From positions 95,171-159,170 of IMG/VR virus record IMGVR_UViG_3300002143_000172: DNA of 64,000 bases, one strand, 5' to 3'. Shown here in pieces: positions 11,849 through 50,019 of this stretch. The notes beneath the pieces were generated by a model that did no database searches, was not told the origin of the DNA, and worked only from the letters and a program-made list of their open reading frames with translations. The position numbers and the translations under genes are program-made. This DNA comes from a virus. The stretch's first letter is position 1, and every line of letters starts with the position of its first letter.

Positions 11849-12244
11849 TTATAGTGTGAACGCTGTAACAGATACGCTACCTAATGCGATACCGTTAACT
11901 GTACCAACTGCCTTAATTGCTGTTTCTAAAGCATCTGCTGTGCTAGATTCTTCGTCTGGAAGACCCATGCCTAACCCACTTGGGCTTAGAGAGTCTGCGC
12001 CAGTATCTTCAATAGCAATGCGTAGATCGCGATTTGCACCTGTACCAGTGTTTTGAACTGTACCGATCATTGCTACTGTGGCAAATAATGAGCAAGCCTG
12101 AATAGTCTTGTCAATTGCACCGTTTACAACACCAACTTGACCATTTACTGCGGCTGGGAAGGCAATGTTAAAAAAACTTAGTGTACTTGGACGCTGACTT
12201 GGGGCTGCGACTGAACCGTTAACTCGTGTAATTCCTGCTGACAT
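11849..12244 (-). CDS. Putative abundant virion structural protein, paralogue 2
   Basis: MSAGITRVNGSVAAPSQRPSTL; strong AAGGAG RBS, own late promoter and terminator. Confidence 0.7.
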   Translation of the reverse strand: MSAGITRVNGSVAAPSQRPSTLSFFNIAFPAAVNGQVGVVNGAIDKTIQACSLFATVAMIGTVQNTGTGANRDLRIAIEDTGADSLSPSGLGMGLPDEESSTADALETAIKAVGTVNGIALGSVSVTAFTL

Positions 12245-12397: not shown

Positions 12398-12799
12398 TTA
12401 TAATGTGAAAGCGGCAACAGTAGCACCTGTTAAATCAATGCTATTTTCACCAACATCGTCACCTAGAGCAGTGATTGCGGCTTCTAGAGCGGCTGCTGTG
12501 GTAGCTGCCTCATCTGGAAGGCCCATACCTAAACCACTTGGGCTAAGACTATCAACACCTGTGTCTTCAATACCGATAACTAATCCCTGTCCTGTACCAC
12601 CTGTAGCACTTAATGTTCCGACCATTGCTACTGTAGCAAATTCTGAACATGCGCGGACTGCTTGATCAATAGCGCCATTGACAAGACCGACTTCGGCCGT
12701 ACAATCAACACCAAAATCAATTTGGAAAAAAGTTAGCGTACTTGGACGCTGACTTGGGGCTGCAACTGAGCCATGAACTCGTGTAATTCCTGCTGACAT
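12398..12799 (-). CDS. Putative abundant virion structural protein, paralogue 1
   Basis: MSAGITRVHGSVAAPSQRPSTL; shares DSLSPSGLGMGLPDE and terminal AFTL with paralogue 2. Confidence 0.7.
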   Translation of the reverse strand: MSAGITRVHGSVAAPSQRPSTLTFFQIDFGVDCTAEVGLVNGAIDQAVRACSEFATVAMVGTLSATGGTGQGLVIGIEDTGVDSLSPSGLGMGLPDEAATTAAALEAAITALGDDVGENSIDLTGATVAAFTL

Positions 12800-15775: not shown

Positions 15776-16366
15776 CTATTCCTGTGTTCTCATGTATTCG
15801 CTAGCGTCCCCAGCTAGGCTGACATGCCAAGCATAAAATTTAGTATTTGGGAATTCTGTTTTAAGACTAACAAATGAATCTAGATTGGGTACTGCATCGT
15901 CATACATGATCGCTTTTGAATAGTTTCCAGAATTAAGCAAAGAGCTTATAATTCTCTTTTTACGATCTTCTGTAGATCCGCCCTTTAAATTTCCTGCACG
16001 GTAAACATGCACCTTGTTCATATCCACTCCGTACTTACGGAATGTGTCTAAAAACAATTCCTTGTCATTGAAGTCTGCACGGGCAGTTACCATCACTACT
16101 TTATTACCAGTGGCAATATCTTGTTTAAGCTGATCCATCATTGGTATGATTGGTTTAGCGTTGGCAAAAAATTCGCGGGCATCTCGAAAGTCGCCAAAAT
16201 CAAATTCTTCATCGGGCTTTAATTTATAGTGTGTAAAGTCGTGACTGTTAAGACTTTTGATCACCTGCCCATTCCTAACTACATGTACTTTGGTCTGGGT
16301 GTGTACAAGTGTGTCGTCTATATCAAAAATGACCAACTTGTTTGATGTTAAATCACTGGCTCTCAT
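15776..16366 (-). CDS. HAD-superfamily phosphatase
   Basis: FDIDDTL motif I, VTAR motif II, K, YDD motif IV. Confidence 0.85.
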   Translation of the reverse strand: MRASDLTSNKLVIFDIDDTLVHTQTKVHVVRNGQVIKSLNSHDFTHYKLKPDEEFDFGDFRDAREFFANAKPIIPMMDQLKQDIATGNKVVMVTARADFNDKELFLDTFRKYGVDMNKVHVYRAGNLKGGSTEDRKKRIISSLLNSGNYSKAIMYDDAVPNLDSFVSLKTEFPNTKFYAWHVSLAGDASEYMRTQE

Positions 16367-16375
16367 AATATCACA

Positions 16376-16930
16376 TTATCCCCAACTTATTCCAGCGCCC
16401 TGTTGTTGAGCAAACTTAACCATAGCCATTAATGTATCAACATATCGATCCACTTGGCCTTGACTTCTGCCCATGTCATGTATTGTTGGTCCCCTGCCTA
16501 TACTGGTCAATCCTGTCTCAGTATCAGTTGTTTGGCGCATATTTCCTCGATTTACCGTTGGATCTTGTGTGTAATGTTTAGTGTCTTGATTCTTTAACAG
16601 TATCAATTTTTTCATTATTGCAGGCAATTGTTCGTGTGTTATAATCCCAGAGTAGTCGCTATTATCTAAACCCAACATATCAGCTATTGCACCTGCATTG
16701 GCGTTGGATACTTGTAATGTAGGTGCATTAGATACCCATTCTTTACTCTTCCCGTCACCGCGACAATATCTACAATCGGTTCCGTCATAGCTGTCTTTTC
16801 CAGTGCCGTCACATACCATGCATGGGACCATTTCGTATTTGCCAAACTCATTTGATGACCATTGGCCTTGGTCATTTAATTTAGCCACACCAAATTCTAC
16901 ACCTTCTTTAAGAAATTCTTTTGCTCTCAT
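16376..16930 (-). CDS. Protein with DnaJ-type zinc-finger pair
   Basis: CMVCDGTG and CRYCRGDG. Confidence 0.65.
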   Translation of the reverse strand: MRAKEFLKEGVEFGVAKLNDQGQWSSNEFGKYEMVPCMVCDGTGKDSYDGTDCRYCRGDGKSKEWVSNAPTLQVSNANAGAIADMLGLDNSDYSGIITHEQLPAIMKKLILLKNQDTKHYTQDPTVNRGNMRQTTDTETGLTSIGRGPTIHDMGRSQGQVDRYVDTLMAMVKFAQQQGAGISWG

Positions 16931-17351
16931 AGTCTTCCGTTATTGGTTTTGAGTTTAAGTATTCTGGATATTGTTTATTAAAATGCCGCATGATAACACC
17001 TGCAACTGCGTGGGCTTCGTTTTCAATAGGACTACCGGTGTCTCCACTATCGGGTCTTAGTCGGTGTTCTGTTCCTTGTTTGAAATGACATAACTCATGC
17101 GCGATAGTTCTTAAAATATCATTAGGATGCCGGTTCATTAGGGCAACATTCAGGGTGTTGGCCTCGTTATCAAATTTACCAAATGTGGGTTGATGGTCAT
17201 CTCCAACCTGTGGTTCAAATATCATCTGCGGGAGTGATTTTAACTTTAAAATCTTCATGGCAAGAGGTAAGAATTTCTTAAAAATTTCAATAAAATTCTT
17301 CTTATGATCTGATATGCTACCGGTGCTTTCTGTAAATTCTTGTGCTCTCAT
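16908..17351 (-). CDS. Zincin-like metallopeptidase
   Basis: TIAHELCHFKQ (HExxH) and downstream E.EA. Confidence 0.75.
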   Translation of the reverse strand: MRAQEFTESTGSISDHKKNFIEIFKKFLPLAMKILKLKSLPQMIFEPQVGDDHQPTFGKFDNEANTLNVALMNRHPNDILRTIAHELCHFKQGTEHRLRPDSGDTGSPIENEAHAVAGVIMRHFNKQYPEYLNSKPITEDYESKRIS

Positions 17352-17362
17352 GACTGTATTTA

Positions 17363-17448
17363 GTGCTCACTTTGGTAACGAATGGCGTTAAGTTACCTGG
17401 CAGCAGCCGCCACACCCGTAAAGATTAACGGTCCTAAGGGTGTTTTTT
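17363..17448. ncRNA. Candidate structured RNA element containing rRNA-identical segments
   Basis: Three adjacent hairpins (GGTAAC/GTTACC, TGGC/GCCA, ACACCC/GGGTGT plus T6); contains CAGCAGCCGC and TAACGGTCCTAAGG. Confidence 0.5.
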
Positions 17449-17574
17449 AAAAGATTCTACTATTTCTTCTGTATTTAAGGCAATTCCTGCCTGCCCGCAG
17501 CCAAAGCAGGCTAGACCCACCATGATATCAAGCAGAAATTCATTTTTAAGGTAGTTGATTAAATTTTCTATCAT
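17434..17574 (-). CDS. Small hypothetical peptide (46 aa) whose TAG stop lies inside the RNA element
   Basis: Read manually: MIENLINYLKNEFLLDIMVGLACFGCGQAGIALNTEEIVESFKKHP*. Confidence 0.4.
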   Translation of the reverse strand: MIENLINYLKNEFLLDIMVGLACFGCGQAGIALNTEEIVESFKKHP

Positions 17575-17737
17575 AATAAATTATACCCAATAACTATAGC
17601 TGGTCAATAGTGTTGAAGTAGTCTTCACCGTAAGTCTTGACACTTTTGTTGGAGAAAGTTTTTCTTGTTTCGAGGCAGGTATCTTACTCGTAATAACTTT
17701 TAGAGAATATAATTGAGTAATCGCAAGGATCTGTGTA

Positions 17738-17809
17738 TTAGTAAACGCGAAATTTACTCTTAATTTTAATGTTAATGGGGATATTAATAGTAAATTCTCG
17801 TGCTCTCAT
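17738..17809 (-). pseudogene. Truncated late gene (23 codons, MRAREFTINIPINIKIKSKFRVY*)
   Basis: TAAATA promoter and MRAxEF tag like its neighbours, but premature stop. Confidence 0.35.
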
Positions 17810-23239: not shown

Positions 23240-23458
23240 TTATTTTTCTCGGTACACTATACGACCTTTGGTTAGATCGTATGGACTCATTTCGAGTTTA
23301 ACTCGATCGCCCATTAATATTTGAATTTTATTTTGGCGCATTCTGCCACTTATGTGACCAAGGATCGTAGATCCTTGTTCTAGCTTTACCCGAAACATTG
23401 CGTTGGGTAACACTTCTTCAACCCTGCCTTCTAGGTTGATCATATCTTCTTTTGCCAC
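23240..23458 (-). CDS. infA: Translation initiation factor IF-1
   Basis: [26 protein letters not shown]...[13 protein letters not shown]; 72 aa. Confidence 0.97.
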
Positions 23459-25405: not shown

Positions 25406-25728
25406 ATTCTAAAACTTTCTCCACAACCGCATCGGTCTCGTTCGTTTGGGTTAACAAAATCAAAACCTTCGTTAAGACCTTTTTTAACCCAATCCACTGT
25501 TAGTCCTTCTAGGTAAACATGAGACCTTCCATCTACCCAAACTGTTACTCCGTAGCTTTCATATTTGAATTGATCCCTAGTAACTGGTGTATGATCAACA
25601 TATTCTAATGTATAGGCCAATCCACTGCATCCAGTAGTTTTAACACCAAGGCGTATGCCCAGGCCTTTGCCTCTATGTGCTAACTGTTGTTGGACCTTAG
25701 TGGCCGCTTGTTCAGTTAGTGAGATCAT
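25402..25728 (-). CDS. iscA: A-type Fe-S carrier IscA
   Basis: [16 protein letters not shown]...[12 protein letters not shown]...CGCGESF. Confidence 0.93.
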
Positions 25729-27118
25729 GTCTTTCTCTGTAGTCTTTTATTGCCGCTTTGATAGCATCTTCTGCTAGTATTGAACAATGTATTTTAACTG
25801 GCGGTAGGGCGAGCTCTTCAGCAATCTCTGAATTCTTAATGCTTCCTGCTTGGTCAAGAGTTTTACCTTTGACCCATTCAGTAACAAGACTGGAACTGGC
25901 AATAGCTGAACCACAATTGTGTGAACCGACTCTATTAGAGAAAAACACATGAGCACCATCCTCCAATTTTAAATCATAAACTACGACTAATTTGCCATCT
26001 CTTTCACATCCACGCAATTGATTTTGATGAGTTATCGCTGAAATGCCTACGATTTCCATTCCATTGTGAATAAAATTCTGCACTTCTGGTAATGATTGTG
26101 CAATATCTTCTACTGCTAAAAATAACGAGTCGTATCCGGCTGTGGCCAATTGCTTACGCCGGTTGGCCACATAATTTGATTCCTCAGACCGATCCTGCAT
26201 AAATTTCGGCATCTGCTTTGTATATACTTCTATACATTTTTTCTTGCCAGGCACAATAAAGTCCGGACTTGCTGGACCAGATTCCGTCTGAATCCATATC
26301 TTGCCAGCACTCCATCTTACAGCTACATTGTTTTCTTCAAATAAACTGATGTATTTTTGTTCAATACTAGTAGGTTTAGTCCAATCTCGTTGTGCCATTC
26401 CCTGTTGCCATTTTTCAATGTATGCTAGATTTGACCAATTTTTAACTGAGGCTGCACTTGAACGCTTCTTTTTAGTTGCTAAATCTTTACACACATACCC
26501 AGGTTGATTTTGTGGTAATACCGAGTGGTCAAACTCCTTATTCCATGCTGTCATTCTGACACTATTTTTTTGTTTAAGTGTAGTACAATGTCTGTTGTTA
26601 GTAAGAATCCTTAGTTCGTGTTCAGTTATCTCATATAACTCTTGTCCTACTTGTAGCTGTTGCGCTTCGATTGGCTTGTTATTGGCATTCCAAAATATAT
26701 GTTCCTTAGTACAAATTAATGAAAAAGTTCCAGGATTAATATTTTGTCTACTAGTTTCTCTTTGAAATGTAATTACTAACAAATCATCCACTTCGACCGA
26801 ATGTTTAATAATATCTCGCACTTTTTGCGGATGAATAGTATTTCCATCCCACGCTAACACTTCATCACCAACGACTAACGATGATATCTTTTTTCTATTA
26901 GTTGGTGTATTCACTGGCATATTGCTTGTTAGACACCCATATGTTTTAAATTTTGCGTCTTTGATAATTCCATCTTCTACTCTAATCTGTAATTTCATTA
27001 CATCGCCACAAGCAGGTGCGCCCACCATTCCTGTGCCAACATCGGGATCATCTTTTTGGAAAGATCCTGCATTTCTAGGATTTTCATAATGATCAAGTAC
27101 CTTGTCTGAATATGCCAT
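25712..27118 (-). CDS. iscU: Fe-S scaffold IscU precursor containing an intein (128-aa spliced product)
   Basis: MAYSDKVLDHYENPRN, APACGD, FKTYG|CGSAIASSS, LPPVKIHCS. Confidence 0.95.
   Translation of the reverse strand: MAYSDKVLDHYENPRNAGSFQKDDPDVGTGMVGAPACGDVMKLQIRVEDGIIKDAKFKTYGCLTSNMPVNTPTNRKKISSLVVGDEVLAWDGNTIHPQKVRDIIKHSVEVDDLLVITFQRETSRQNINPGTFSLICTKEHIFWNANNKPIEAQQLQVGQELYEITEHELRILTNNRHCTTLKQKNSVRMTAWNKEFDHSVLPQNQPGYVCKDLATKKKRSSAASVKNWSNLAYIEKWQQGMAQRDWTKPTSIEQKYISLFEENNVAVRWSAGKIWIQTESGPASPDFIVPGKKKCIEVYTKQMPKFMQDRSEESNYVANRRKQLATAGYDSLFLAVEDIAQSLPEVQNFIHNGMEIVGISAITHQNQLRGCERDGKLVVVYDLKLEDGAHVFFSNRVGSHNCGSAIASSSLVTEWVKGKTLDQAGSIKNSEIAEELALPPVKIHCSILAEDAIKAAIKDYRERHDLTN
25916..26935 (-). 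mobile_element. Intein (340 aa) with central endonuclease-like domain
   Basis: Block A CLTSNMPV, block B CTKEH (TxxH), block F VVYDLKLEDGAHVFF, terminal SHN followed by +1 Cys. Confidence 0.93.
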
Positions 27119-45205: not shown

Positions 45206-46183
45206 TTACTCCTTGGGGTCTACTGGTCGTTTTGGAATCAATATGTCTGTTCCACAATGGCAATGATCTTTTTTACAAATGATTTTTCTTGGACCAATCT
45301 CTAGGGTATCCCAAAGTATATTACCCAGGATGCCAACCTGTCCACAGGTACCCATGCTCACTTGCCCAACTTGGTCAATCCAGATGCTATCGCCGATGCT
45401 ACATTCCCAACCCTTAAAGAAGTTTTGTCTTTCTAATATCACTTCGTTACTGAATGTTCCGTTCTTAGTACCGTCTGACCAATATGATTCACTGTAGAAC
45501 AAGTTGTCAAAAGTTTTATGGGGGATCGTTTTTACACTGTCAACTTTATACTTTTCTAAGAATCGAAGTTTCTCGGGATCCTTATATTCCCATGGGCCAG
45601 CGTTCCTAGACATCTCATCGAACAATGGTGTCCATTCAATAAAATAGTTTGGCATTGATTGTTTTAACTTTTCTCCAAACTCTACAACTTCCCAAAAACG
45701 CTCATCGTGCATTAGCATCTTACAACTGAAGTAATTGAACTTATCAGAAAGAAATATAGCGTTATCTAAGTATCTCTGTTGATCAGCAAACTCAATGTGA
45801 AAGCTGGCCACAACATCATCAAAATAGTGATAGTGTTTCTTCCACCAATTTGTAGATCTACTAAAGTTAGTATTAACGGCAATTAATGTATTTGGCAGTG
45901 ACTCTCTAATCCATTCAATAATTGGGATTAAGTTTCTCCAGAGCGTGGGTTCCCCACCACTAAAGAAAAACTTAAAGTTTTCATACCCTAGTTCTCTGTA
46001 CTTGTCGGTTATGTTTTTAAGGTTGTCAATGTATAGTAACAGATTTTCATCGTTCCTGCTCTCGCCCGAATAGTTTCCAGGATTGCAGTAACTACATTTG
46101 TAATTACAGAAATTACTAACCTGCCATACCACATCAAGATATTTCTTGTTGGGTTCTATCTTTATAAGTTTTCTTGTGTCCAT
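45206..46183 (-). CDS. Radical SAM enzyme with C-terminal Cys-rich domain
   Basis: CNYKCSYC, SGGEPT, terminal C...C...C.C. Confidence 0.9.
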   Translation of the reverse strand: MDTRKLIKIEPNKKYLDVVWQVSNFCNYKCSYCNPGNYSGESRNDENLLLYIDNLKNITDKYRELGYENFKFFFSGGEPTLWRNLIPIIEWIRESLPNTLIAVNTNFSRSTNWWKKHYHYFDDVVASFHIEFADQQRYLDNAIFLSDKFNYFSCKMLMHDERFWEVVEFGEKLKQSMPNYFIEWTPLFDEMSRNAGPWEYKDPEKLRFLEKYKVDSVKTIPHKTFDNLFYSESYWSDGTKNGTFSNEVILERQNFFKGWECSIGDSIWIDQVGQVSMGTCGQVGILGNILWDTLEIGPRKIICKKDHCHCGTDILIPKRPVDPKE

Positions 46184-47418
46184 TCGTATATGTCCTCTAG
46201 GTCTGGAATCATTTCAAATAATTCTTCTTTTCGAATCTTATCAGTTTCAAATTGAATGTCAAAGAATTCTTTAAGGCCGTCAATTCGAGTATCTCCCTTT
46301 AATGCTTCTTGAACCATTGCCGCGCAGTTTTGTACATCTACACAGTAATTAGGATTCATTTTAATCTTGTTCCATTTAAGGAATAATCGATCTTTGTAGT
46401 ACTGCGGTAGTATGCTAATGTTTGCCCACCAAGGGTTCGTTAACATGTTTAATCGTAAACTTTCTCTTCTAGTTGGATCAATATATTTGTTATCAACCAT
46501 ATAGTTAAAGAAGTCTGGAAAGTGTATTACATTCCAAATGCTAATAGTAGGTGTTAGATTAAATTCTACATGGGGAACTTGTTCTTTCAACATTCTGATG
46601 TTGTTTTCGACTTCATCCCACTTGGCACCAGACCGCAAGTATTCTAGTGTAGGACCCATGCCATCGAGACTAGCAAATATTTTAACTTTTTTAAACTTCT
46701 TCCAATAGTCTAATACATTTTTACTTTTGTATTTGAATACACTAAAATTTGTTGTATAGGTTATCTCAACATCGTCTCTACCTAATTTAATCCATTCGTC
46801 CAATACTTTATAGTGTTCGGAAGTAATTAAACTTTCGCCGCCTGCAAAATAAACTTCTTCAACATCTTTAAGATATGGGTTAACTTTAGGAAAAAAGTCA
46901 TCGTTGTCGTTGCAGGTAACTAGCATGTCGTCCATGTTAAAGTGTATCTTTAACTTTTCAATCCCACCTTTATGTTCAATGAACTCTTTAGCATGAAGGC
47001 TGCTAAATTCGGGTCCGCAACTTCTACACTTTTGATTGCAGATGTTACTCCAGCGGATGTCCATGTACCGTAATTTAAAGTCGTTGATGCTACCGTTTGC
47101 AGTTGTTGCATTAACCAAGCTAAGATTGGCGTCGCCCCTAACTTGATTGGAGCTTTGCCGGAGGCTCCATTGTCCCACAGCTTCGACATCATAACATCGA
47201 TTGCATACATCACTGGGCTTTCCAGAAAGCATGTTCCGTCTAAGTTCTTTGTATTCCTTAGTGTTCATCATAGTAATAACATCTTTGCTATCAGTAGTCG
47301 ACACCGGAAGATCTGAGTTTGCCATACAGCAAGGTAACACTTTCTTATTTGGTAATGCATGAAAGTGTATCCACGGTAATATACAGAATACTTGTGATTC
47401 GGGAATTTTGGTAAGCAT
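46162..47418 (-). CDS. Radical SAM enzyme with N-terminal SPASM/twitch-like domain
   Basis: FCILPW, PCC, CNRCY; CNQKCRSC; FAGGE. Confidence 0.9.
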   Translation of the reverse strand: MLTKIPESQVFCILPWIHFHALPNKKVLPCCMANSDLPVSTTDSKDVITMMNTKEYKELRRNMLSGKPSDVCNRCYDVEAVGQWSLRQSSNQVRGDANLSLVNATTANGSINDFKLRYMDIRWSNICNQKCRSCGPEFSSLHAKEFIEHKGGIEKLKIHFNMDDMLVTCNDNDDFFPKVNPYLKDVEEVYFAGGESLITSEHYKVLDEWIKLGRDDVEITYTTNFSVFKYKSKNVLDYWKKFKKVKIFASLDGMGPTLEYLRSGAKWDEVENNIRMLKEQVPHVEFNLTPTISIWNVIHFPDFFNYMVDNKYIDPTRRESLRLNMLTNPWWANISILPQYYKDRLFLKWNKIKMNPNYCVDVQNCAAMVQEALKGDTRIDGLKEFFDIQFETDKIRKEELFEMIPDLEDIYEWTQENL

Positions 47419-47420
47419 AA

Positions 47421-48638
47421 TTAATCCAATAGGCTTGTTAGTTCAGGGAACACGCTTGCAAAAGATTCGCCGCGTACTTTATCTAATGCGCCCACCTCTT
47501 CTTGAAACATCGTCTTGTATGTGTCCCATGTATGTTCAGTTTCAGCCCAAACAATATTTTTACCAATTGCATTTGTTTGATGACTTAAAAATCCTTTTGC
47601 TCTCATTGAAACTATAAGACTCTGTATTCCTTGTTTGCCCATTGCTTTTAATTCTTTTGGTAGCGCACGGGCAGTTAGGTGTTCGGGACTAACCATACTG
47701 TAGGTAGTGTGTACATAATCAGTGGGCAAAATGATATTTTTGTCAATGATATAATTATAAAAATCGTGTAGTGTTGTGTAGTTAAAGATACTAACCACGG
47801 TGTTCAATGTAAGCGATATGTTATCTAGAGATCTAAACTTTAACAGATTACTTTCAACCTGGGCCCAATCAGTTCCGTTCCTAATGTATTCTGCTCGTTC
47901 ACCGTAATGGTCAATACTTGCAGCCATCAGGATAGGTTTACTAAACCTTGACCATAAATCAATCACATCCTTTTGTTTAAATTTTAAATTGCTGGCATTT
48001 GAATTATAAGAAAGTTGGATATCAGTCTTACCTAACCTGATCATTTCTTCAAGTAGGATGTAATGTTCTTCGGTGATCAATGGTTCGCCACCAGCAAAGT
48101 AGGCAGTTTCCATATAAGGAACATGATCAAGGATCTCTTTTAAAAATTCAGGTTTGTTATTTTTATCAAATACTCTAGCGTCGGGTAACTTTCTTTTTAG
48201 ATTTTCAAATTCCCACTGACTGCTAAATGCTGAGTTACATGTCCTACATTTAAAATTACATATATTTGTAAATCGAAGATCAAAGTATCTCATTTTGAAA
48301 TTACTTAGATATCCAACCATATTTGTATGTATTAACGATTCCTCTAAATCTTTTCCAAAATCTTTATTTAATTTATTCCTAAAAGAGTTCTGTCCTTGTT
48401 TCTCATGTTGATAGCAAGTTGTACAAGATGGACTTTCCTTTTCAAAAATCATATTAGTTCTAAGATTCCGCATACCATCTGAATTGACCAGCTGTTCAAG
48501 ACTGTTCTCTAAACTGCTCCCAAATTTTTCTTTAGAGATACAACACGCAGAAAAATCACCAATCGGACTAGTGTGTGCATGGATCCACGGGGCCATGCAA
48601 AACACTTTGCTTTCTTTTAATAGTCTATCTTTATCCAT
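47421..48638 (-). CDS. Radical SAM enzyme with N-terminal SPASM/twitch-like domain
   Basis: FCMAPW, ACC, CTTCY; CNFKCRTC; FAGGEP. Confidence 0.9.
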   Translation of the reverse strand: MDKDRLLKESKVFCMAPWIHAHTSPIGDFSACCISKEKFGSSLENSLEQLVNSDGMRNLRTNMIFEKESPSCTTCYQHEKQGQNSFRNKLNKDFGKDLEESLIHTNMVGYLSNFKMRYFDLRFTNICNFKCRTCNSAFSSQWEFENLKRKLPDARVFDKNNKPEFLKEILDHVPYMETAYFAGGEPLITEEHYILLEEMIRLGKTDIQLSYNSNASNLKFKQKDVIDLWSRFSKPILMAASIDHYGERAEYIRNGTDWAQVESNLLKFRSLDNISLTLNTVVSIFNYTTLHDFYNYIIDKNIILPTDYVHTTYSMVSPEHLTARALPKELKAMGKQGIQSLIVSMRAKGFLSHQTNAIGKNIVWAETEHTWDTYKTMFQEEVGALDKVRGESFASVFPELTSLLD

Positions 48639-50019
48639 TTAATTTTTTACATCTGTTAAAGAAACTTTTCATTTCTGGAAAAGTTTCCAGAAAGTTTGTA
48701 TCTCTTCTGCTATCCAGAGCAGTGAACCAATTGTAAAAGTCTCGGCGCCCTTCTTCTATCTTATCTTCGCTATACTGAGTATCACGCATATAGTCAACTA
48801 CTCGTCTAAACTTTTCGTATTCAATCTTAGTAAACTTTCCAAGATCGTTATCGTCCATATTCTCTTCCATAAAAGCAAGACTTTCGTCCATATACTTCAT
48901 AAACTTATCTTTGGGAAGAATGTTCATATCATACTGTAATGGCTCTTTAAGATATGGAGTATCAAATCTCAATATCTGCGGTTTGTCGGGCTTGTTATAC
49001 TTAACACGCCATTCTAAAATCTTTGTTAGGAGATCTTTAAACGTAGTAACGCATAGGATGTTAAATGTAATCATAAAACTAATTGGCTGTCCGGTCTTAG
49101 TTAGGTATGCATCTAAATTCTTTTCCCATATTTCTAAATCTAATCCAGTACGAATATACTCGGCTCTCGATCCCCAAGTATCGATACTAGTGAACAATTT
49201 AAAGGCCTTGATTTTGTTGCCGTCGAGAAGATGATTTACTTTCTTTATCATCTTCTCGACCATTGCGGTCTTTACACCCATGTTGCTATTAATGTTTAAT
49301 TCAAGCCACGGCATTGGATCTTCTTCAATGCTATCTAATAGTTTCCAAGTGCTCGAATGCATCAGTGGTTCGCCCCCGGTAATACGCAAGATAGTTAGAT
49401 CCTTACGCATCTTTGGCCACCACTCCCACCATGCATCTACATAGGGGTTGTCTTCTTCTCGTTCATATAGTTTCATCCAATCGATATCACACCTATGATT
49501 TTTAACTGTTTCGACTGGGCCATGTTGTTTGATTTCGTTATAGAATCTACTACTAGCCTTGGGATGGCAATAGCCACATTTAAAATTACACTCATTACCA
49601 AAGCTAATCTCTACATACTCTGGATTAATATTAGCATCCCACGATGCATCTGTAATTGCGGCAAGCCGCTCAGGTGTGTAAATTGATGCAGATCGCAGGT
49701 GCCTATCACTTAGGTGATCCTTTCCTAAGTTCTCTATGTTCCAACAGTATTGGCATCCTTTAGTTTGAATACCATGTAGCATCTCATGGCGTTCAGTCTT
49801 TTTTGCTATGGTGTTATGTAATGCACTAGGATTCTTTTGTATTTCTTTGATGCCAATAGGGTGCGGAGCAGGATGATAACAACTATGGGTTTCTCCCGTT
49901 TGCAAATACAAAGTAGTGTGGTACCATTTAGCCAGACAGAATGTGGGACTAACTTCATTGACTATTGGAATAATTTTCATTAGTCTACCATGGAGACTTT
50001 CATTGTCGCTCATTAACAT
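48631..50019 (-). CDS. Radical SAM enzyme with N-terminal Cys-rich domain
   Basis: FCLAKW, SCYH, CQYCW; CNFKCGYC; TGGEP. Confidence 0.9.
   Translation of the reverse strand: MLMSDNESLHGRLMKIIPIVNEVSPTFCLAKWYHTTLYLQTGETHSCYHPAPHPIGIKEIQKNPSALHNTIAKKTERHEMLHGIQTKGCQYCWNIENLGKDHLSDRHLRSASIYTPERLAAITDASWDANINPEYVEISFGNECNFKCGYCHPKASSRFYNEIKQHGPVETVKNHRCDIDWMKLYEREEDNPYVDAWWEWWPKMRKDLTILRITGGEPLMHSSTWKLLDSIEEDPMPWLELNINSNMGVKTAMVEKMIKKVNHLLDGNKIKAFKLFTSIDTWGSRAEYIRTGLDLEIWEKNLDAYLTKTGQPISFMITFNILCVTTFKDLLTKILEWRVKYNKPDKPQILRFDTPYLKEPLQYDMNILPKDKFMKYMDESLAFMEENMDDNDLGKFTKIEYEKFRRVVDYMRDTQYSEDKIEEGRRDFYNWFTALDSRRDTNFLETFPEMKSFFNRCKKLNG

Follow-up and report, generated by a model that had tools for sequence, protein, structure and literature searches.

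TURBS (termination upstream ribosomal binding sites), known from caliciviruses and from segment 7 of influenza B, are segments of ~80 nt of viral mRNA linked to the place where one ORF stops and the following one starts, with a conserved short motif complementary to rRNA that is thought to tether the post-termination ribosome (PMC6393290, PMC3035654). The motif pairs with an exposed loop of 18S rRNA, and the segment lies upstream of an overlapping stop and start. To our knowledge, no TURBS-like element has been established in bacteria. The Shine-Dalgarno sequence and the 'epsilon' leader of T7 gene 10 act near the start codon by pairing with 16S segments that are accessible, and the snoRNAs of archaea and eukaryotes are guide RNAs that pair with rRNA. 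Huge phages carry translation genes.

The RNA element described here lies in a 64-kb window (the whole stretch of DNA analysed, 64,000 nt), which is the final part of a 159-kb IMG/VR record. Because this record is only 44% complete (CheckV), the source phage is huge. An initial annotation of the window, made from its sequence, had called positions 17363-17448 a compact structured element assembled from conserved rRNA sites, and had proposed either a sense rRNA decoy or an antisense ribosome-binding element. Here, we show that the element belongs to a family of phage RNAs with two architectures, type B (that of the window) and type A, and we establish its strand, helices, single-copy state and position, and its non-random complementarity to rRNA. 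The family is real, undescribed and widespread.

By analogy, TURBS are the nearest functional counterpart of this element. In most members the upstream stop lies within 10 nt of the most conserved motif, L1, so that an ORF ends at or next to the element, and its conserved loops (L1, L2 and L3) complement rRNA, a likeness that is statistical. TURBS are placed upstream of an overlapping stop and start, whereas the phage element is placed between a stop and a start ~100 nt apart; among its putative sites are 23S rRNA and stretches that are buried in the mature ribosome, rather than an exposed 18S loop; and it is bacterial and known from sequence, in contrast to the elements of caliciviruses and influenza B. 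Like Shine-Dalgarno and epsilon sequences it is a leader with short rRNA-complementary sequences, for which we propose an aid to ribosome capture, but it has three motifs on a covarying scaffold, two of them directed toward 23S domain IV, and no motif resembles the anti-Shine-Dalgarno partner. It shares covarying helices, invariant loops, a position before the start codon and, in one variant, a pseudoknot with the leader and riboswitch candidates from phages and metagenomes in Rfam, although four of its representatives have no match in Rfam 15 at E up to 10, its downstream genes are heterogeneous and no ligand logic is apparent. With snoRNAs it has in common short conserved antisense elements to universal rRNA sites on a small structured RNA and, in one class of loop, two elements that would lie side by side on one rRNA stretch; unlike the archaeal and eukaryotic snoRNAs it lacks C/D and H/ACA boxes, has no recognisable enzyme nearby, abuts a start codon and occurs in a bacterial and phage setting.

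Results

Matches to rRNA in the window alone

E. coli rRNA reference sequences were taken from NC_000913, and comparison with these and with the window bore out the strings, coordinates and rRNA positions of the initial annotation. On the plus strand, CAGCAGCCGC at 17401-17410 is identical to 16S 519-528, TAACGGTCCTAAGG at 17426-17439 to 23S 1917-1930, CCGTAA at 17416 to 23S 1908-1913 (with a 4-nt spacer to TAACGGTCCTAAGG vs 3 nt in rRNA) and GCTCACT at 17365-17371 to 23S 1099-1105. Two more 11-mers match in the same orientation, at 17378 (23S 1966-1976) and at 17384 (23S 648-658), and a T6 run at 17443-17448 follows helix P1 on this strand.

The expected number of 14-mers in common with the 4.6 kb of rRNA is 1.0 for each shuffled window, as the annotation had cautioned. 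It had then located the signal in the clustering of the matches, which the window alone does not sustain: the local cluster of matches of at least 10 nt at 17363-17448 is exceeded by 10-45% of shuffles with both orientations allowed, and by 1-4% when the observed orientation only is counted. The fold of the element is no more stable than those of shuffles (z = +0.3 plus, -0.4 minus). Thermodynamic tests on the single sequence and on 51 homologues, for both strands, gave z near -0.5 and were dismissed as uninformative, and minimum free energies gave no preference for the gene strand, the plus strand being equal or better. On the window alone, then, the likeness to rRNA is not beyond chance, and the signal that does exceed chance comes from homologues. 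That short rRNA matches had clustered by chance, in an ordinary intergenic spacer or terminator that serves no specific function, would account for these unremarkable statistics and for fold z-scores near zero, but in our view this reading is already refuted by the covariance-model matches and the covariation described below, there being ~100 homologous loci with strong covariation, invariant loops and a single copy of the element.

A family of elements in huge phages

At the DNA level, a search with the 1-kb region against 50,697 phage records gave no match, an exact 22-mer was not found in an IMG/VR search, and no cultured phage matched. Searching IMG/VR with the protein encoded downstream (147 aa) recovered 29 loci, many with a conserved gene-strand sequence directly upstream. 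Pattern scans, with conserved parts of the element as patterns, yielded 43 stretches (38 distinct) and 28 stretches in two scans of IMG/VR, and 42 stretches (34 distinct) in a scan of metagenomes. A covariance model built from 13 window-like sequences has exactly one match per locus in 46 type-B loci, and its sole match in the window is 17357-17448 (minus strand; 111 bits, E = 1.7e-21); it finds no match in type-A loci or in loci without the element, and so does not bridge types B and A.

The homologues that the initial annotation had suggested looking for thus exist, in ~100 phage and metagenome contigs, with the element once per genome and always on the gene strand. Its carriers are huge (~360 kb) freshwater and marine phages. 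It is single-copy in the 159-kb record, in a complete relative of 357,559 bp and in two other fragments, as is the full conserved tail of the element.

No Rfam family accounts for the conserved bases, a check that the annotation had also called for. The whole window gave 0 Rfam matches at the gathering threshold, including none to an LSU or SSU model, and the element region only Spot 42 (12 bits vs 80) and a CRISPR repeat (13 bits vs 39). Rfam 15 was tested with four representatives at E up to 10, and those of type A and of L3 classes ii and iii (described below) returned miRNA noise only. Literature searches on phage leaders complementary to 23S rRNA, and on jumbo-phage IF-1, yielded nothing on such an element.

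Architecture

The 5′ part (L1 with hairpin P1a) is common to both architectures, as are the nine final bases ahead of the start codon. Type B reads, 5′ to 3′ on the minus strand, P1 enclosing L1 and the optional P1a, then P2 with L2, P3 with L3, and an unpaired, conserved tail of 16 nt. Type A includes an optional hairpin, a joining strand that is conserved, and two further hairpins, one of 5 bp with a bulged U and a loop engaged in a pseudoknot, the other with a conserved 9-nt loop. The parts in the window are:

17357..17448, minus strand: the type-B element in full, the span of the covariance-model match
17440..17443, minus strand: 5′ strand of P1, ACAC, extendable into the CC of L1; all 4 pairs of this helix (helix 1) show two-sided change
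17431..17439, minus strand: L1, CCUUAGGAC, the most conserved motif of the family, with invariant columns; antisense to 23S 1922-1930 (9/9, p = 0.021)
17416..17431, minus strand: P1a, optional inner hairpin, its stem the antisense of the 23S helix 69 stem
17412..17415, minus strand: 3′ strand of P1, GUGU, with the covariation of helix 1
17399..17411, minus strand: P2 hairpin, GGCGG-CUG-CUGCC, with L2, CGGCUGCUG; antisense to 16S 519-527, with an invariant internal G.U
17374..17397, minus strand: P3 hairpin, GGUAAC/GUUACC, with loop L3 of class i (17380-17391); all 5 pairs of this helix (helix 4) covary
17356..17373, minus strand: single-stranded conserved tail, AAGUGAGCACUAAAUA, with 4-8 nt between its end and the start codon in every member

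P1 is 94.5% paired and alternative stems exist; L1 is internally paired to a CUAAGG segment in L075, L077 and L094. P1a (helix 2) is mostly invariant and is absent in L076, L079, L086 and L095. In P2 (helix 3) the outer pairs covary among GC, CG, GU and AU, with the internal G.U present in 45/46 sequences, and P3 has at least seven different complementary stems among the relatives. The end of the tail, CACUAAAUA, is common to types A and B, and in the window the tail stops 5 nt before the AUG.

L1 is kept in sequences gathered without L1 in the search pattern, and likewise L2 and L3. The complement of L1, GTCCTAAGG, is kept across the whole family, and that of L2, CAGCAGCCG, is exact in 33/34 sequences gathered without requiring it. 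Of the rRNA-identical bases, whose invariance the initial annotation had proposed to test, those at the L1 and L2 sites are the conserved ones; GCTCACT is only a 7-mer in the conserved tail. Of the part that the annotation likened to helix 69, the L1 motif is kept and the hairpin is optional, the four members named above lacking it. The GCTCACT match, the T6 run and an ORF stop codon that falls in L1 in the window are incidental or local.

Covariation and the RNA strand

The three hairpins and the compact structure that had been proposed for the window are real by covariation, and the stems covary in both types. In type B, whose alignment was fitted to the covariance model, 93.2% of cells are paired vs 69.2% in shuffles, the covariation score is 0.46 vs 0.11 (0/500 shuffles as high), and 13 of the 18 pairs show two-sided change; controls with slid partners are 35-63% paired. 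The type-A alignment is plain MAFFT with no fit to a structure and is thus the cleaner control: 96.2% of cells are paired vs 75.2% in shuffles, with a score of 0.43 vs 0.12 (0/500 as high), two helices have every cell paired (100%) and covariation at each of their ten pairs, and one pair of the pseudoknot covaries (CG 25, GC 3, AU 1). The element has the marks of a structured leader, namely compensatory changes in its helices together with a constant orientation and distance to the start codon.

Three observations favour the gene strand as the RNA. Read on the plus strand, the invariant G.U of P2, and the G.U/A-U exchange and U.G pairs within the fully paired helices of type A, would be A.C mismatches; the distance from tail to downstream AUG is fixed at 4-8 nt, in one orientation, whatever gene follows; and no U-tract is conserved on the plus strand. 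The other type-B pairs are strand-neutral (G.U in 14 cells vs A.C in 17). An outward extension of P2 with 45 G.U vs 0 A.C was discounted as strand evidence, its flanks being G/U-rich. The RNA is very probably that of the gene strand, which is the minus strand in the window.

The converse reading, favoured by the annotation in one form, is a plus-strand RNA ending at T6 that would serve as an rRNA-like decoy for toxins or factors, or would act as a cis-antisense to the downstream start. It is on the plus strand that the conserved motifs are identical to rRNA, that P1 is followed by T6 in the window and that minimum free energies are equal or better, and the helices are strand-neutral save for one pair. 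Against this, the T-run is a feature of the window that is not conserved, relatives having A-rich, stop-codon-containing sequence in its place, and a rho-independent terminator was not called by the scan, and the window stem encloses ~20 nt. A sense decoy needs a plus-strand RNA, which would carry the A.C mismatches in P2 and in type A and whose promoter would have to fall inside varied coding sequences, and the neighbouring genes are all on the minus strand. With orientation and start distance also pointing to the minus strand, we consider this reading very unlikely.

Genomic setting

On the gene strand, the element occupies the space that separates an upstream ORF's stop codon from the start codon of the gene that follows. 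In type B the upstream stop precedes L1 by 2-10 nt at 27 loci, coincides with the UAG of L1 at 4 (including the window) and is farther away at 7, and 10 loci have no ORF of at least 40 codons there; two type-A members also have the stop on the L1 UAG. The neighbouring features in the window are:

16908..17351, minus strand: downstream gene, encoding a 147-aa protein with an HExxH motif and weak matches to zincin metallopeptidases
17434..17574, minus strand: upstream 46-codon ORF with its TAG stop inside L1, not conserved beside the element elsewhere
17580..17607, minus strand: sigma-70-like promoter TTGACC-16-TATAAT, a consensus match only, with 11/12 consensus positions

The 147-aa HExxH family accounts for 46 of the 76 distinct downstream proteins and is the commonest to follow the element. 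A YbeY-like rRNA nuclease was considered and dropped for this protein, which has only weak zincin peptidase matches and no PDB match. The remaining downstream proteins are varied, and many begin MR-x-x-E-F/L. In L043, L045, L075, L088, L097, L098 and L107 the element precedes not the zincin-like gene but that of a membrane protein of 233 aa, whose histidine boxes are similar to those of a fatty-acid desaturase.

The 46-codon ORF does stop within the helix-69-like part of the window, as had been reported, and is not conserved next to the element, so it was dropped as a part of it. The sigma-70-like promoter is ~130 nt upstream of the element and is not conserved in relatives. It lies only ~5 nt before the ATG of the 46-codon ORF, and the message of that ORF would therefore be nearly leaderless. 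All genes neighbouring the element are on the minus strand, in agreement with the annotation. Contigs of three lake metatranscriptomes join a relative's downstream gene to the element, and other lake metatranscriptome contigs match window 17397-17446 exactly; these contigs report presence in RNA libraries only, with no strand, ends or level and with DNA carry-over possible. Where contigs break inside the element, the breaks probably reflect sequence common to strains.

The phage encodes an IF-1 homologue, again as annotated (PF01176, 93.7 bits; window 23249-23437, minus strand), which is also present in the complete 357-kb relative. A Shine-Dalgarno-like 4-mer precedes 13 of 43 genes (at least 100 aa, window minus strand), which hints at a host with weak Shine-Dalgarno use; with so few genes having the 4-mer, an argument from a missing Shine-Dalgarno sequence to special initiation was dropped.

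Several further features of the region were recorded. The neighbours at 15776-17351 (minus strand) encode the 147-aa zincin-like protein, a 184-aa Zn-finger protein and a 196-aa HAD/PNK-like protein, all of which begin MRA(K/Q/S)(E/D)(F/L); these N-termini may resemble the capsid-targeting sequences, short and N-terminal, that internal proteins of T4 carry. The sequence CTAAATA, with an ATG 4-7 nt behind it, is found ahead of several MRA-type genes (at window 17363 and 17823, and genome-wide). The idea of a T4-type late promoter of general use, or of a repeated cassette, was rejected for it, since it is not enriched, the full tail is single-copy and no gp23-type capsid gene was found above threshold. 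Behind a CTAAATA motif, window 17736-17806 (minus strand) holds a 23-codon mini-ORF, MRAREFTINIPINIKIKSKFRVY, which matches the N-terminus of an 81-100-aa family found after the element in L054, L126 and L132, and which is probably the truncated remnant of a displaced cassette. The adjacent genes at 11849-12244 and 12398-12799 (minus strand), with upstream regions alike at 19/22 bases and identical first codons (ATGTCAGCAGGAATTACA), are probably tandem paralogues. Three radical-SAM-like genes at 46162-50019 (minus strand) adjoin an Fe-S assembly module (NifU/IscU-like, 25712-27118).

Complementarity to rRNA across the family

On the gene strand the conserved loops are antisense to rRNA. L1 matches 23S 1922-1930 at 9/9 positions, extending to 11-14 nt in many members, and L2 matches 16S 519-527 at 9/9. 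L3 occurs in three classes at one structural position. Class i is antisense to 23S 1968-1976 (9-11 nt), with a short form at 1971-1978; in the window the loop and two stem bases form the reverse complement of 23S 1966-1976. Class ii, found in other phages only, is antisense to 23S 1929-1937 (8-9 nt), immediately next to the L1 target. For class iii, no match to rRNA rises above background. Overall, two of the three forms of L3 are complementary to 23S 1929-1937 or 1966-1977.

An rDNA fragment or pseudogene (23S or 16S) was considered as the source of these matches, and the element as a whole shows no collinearity to one rRNA. Collinearity is limited to L1 and P1a, vs 23S 1908-1931 on the antisense strand; L3 is on the wrong side of L1 for collinearity with 23S, and L2 matches 16S instead. 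Simple descent from one captured piece of rDNA therefore does not fit.

For the four antisense matches, shuffling of each motif gave p = 0.021, 0.021, 0.075 and 0.156; in the sense orientation no motif had a comparable rRNA match. A Fisher combination over all ten motifs, computed by hand, is ~0.09, and there is a selection effect in that L1 and L2 had been picked out for resembling rRNA. The co-location test scanned all rRNA windows in both orientations and placed three loops in one 80-nt window of 23S, in one orientation (8 vs a null of 3.25 +/- 1.0; p = 0.0017). The case for rRNA depends on this test and on the independent L3 variants, the single-loop p-values being modest. Taken together, the loop sequences suggest that the link between element and rRNA is in good likelihood real.

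Other properties of the loops would suit a leader that binds a protein or ligand, for example an autoregulatory operator, a site of RNA processing or an element akin to a riboswitch; its likeness to rRNA would then be a frozen accident of origin, such as captured rRNA-derived sequence, or a coincidence. Near-invariant loops on covarying stems, the type-A pseudoknot and the mutually exclusive pairings around L1 are typical of such leaders, and the global Fisher value over all motifs is only ~0.09. Type A retains only a 7-8 nt core of L1 and works without L2 or an rRNA-complementary L3; as its hairpin at the P2 position is optional, L2 pairing is not essential to the family. L2 lies mostly within a stem, and the target rRNA nucleotides are largely paired or buried, and not freely accessible, in mature ribosomes; like the internal pairing of L1 in some members and the class iii loops, this counts against pairing with rRNA. 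Set against these points is the co-location result (p = 0.0017), by which two of three L3 classes complement the 23S neighbourhood of L1; since different classes share one structural position, a frozen accident would need repeated independent captures. Nor is there a match to a riboswitch or leader family in Rfam, and the downstream genes are too diverse for a single metabolite logic: in place of one pathway there are zincin-like proteins, desaturase-like membrane proteins and several unrelated small proteins. We regard a protein- or ligand-binding leader as possible, though on the unlikely side.

A further alternative is a processed small RNA acting in trans on host rRNA (23S helix 69-71 and the 16S 530 loop), as an antisense or guide in assembly or repair. 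The element is compact (~90-115 nt) and single-copy, with exposed loops complementary to universal rRNA sites, class ii would place L1 and L3 as neighbouring duplexes on 23S 1922-1937, class i would have them flank 1932-1965, and the phage family has translation genes such as IF-1. Ribosomal RNA far outnumbers any phage leader, however, making titration implausible; no recognisable guide-dependent enzyme is nearby, and a role in cis is favoured by the tail, which adjoins the start codon in all members. An RNA acting in trans is accordingly an improbable account.

Discussion

We propose that the element is a cis-acting leader RNA between a stop and a start codon, working possibly through pairing with rRNA, and give this reading a probability of roughly 45%. 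Its two parts are of different strength: that the element is cis-regulatory is, on balance, probable, and that rRNA pairing would be its mode of action is a tentative suggestion. It is in this form, with loops of the gene strand antisense to rRNA, that the initial annotation's antisense ribosome-binding element is viable and favoured, as a putative mechanism.

In the proposed mechanism, ribosomes would finish the upstream ORF and the leader would then set the translation level of the downstream gene. Because upstream ORFs end at or near L1, a terminating ribosome would sit on, and would have to unwind, the 5′ part of the element. L1, L2 and L3 may then base-pair with conserved rRNA (23S 1922-1937 and 1966-1977, and 16S 519-527), and this pairing could hold the ribosome or a subunit, or could sense rRNA that has not yet folded. 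In class ii, L1 and L3 would lie side by side on 23S 1922-1937, and in class i they would flank 23S 1932-1965. The conserved loops presumably need a partner, for which rRNA is the sole candidate indicated by the data. That pairing of all three loops, with the 23S helix 69-71 junction and the 16S 530 loop, drives expression of a phage protein module is a more doubtful step, suggested by the sequences of the loops.

Whatever its mode of action, the element stands at the head of a gene module that encodes proteins with a common N-terminal tag. If the pairing with rRNA is incidental, it is still a well-supported family missing from Rfam, with ~100 members and two architectures, one of them with a pseudoknot. 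If the three-loop pairing is true, it would be the first counterpart in a bacterial virus of rRNA-tethering elements such as TURBS, and the first such case with large-subunit rRNA. As a single-copy, widely conserved RNA between stop and start, with loops that mirror the most conserved rRNA, the element offers a testable handle on how the messages of huge phages compete for ribosomes.
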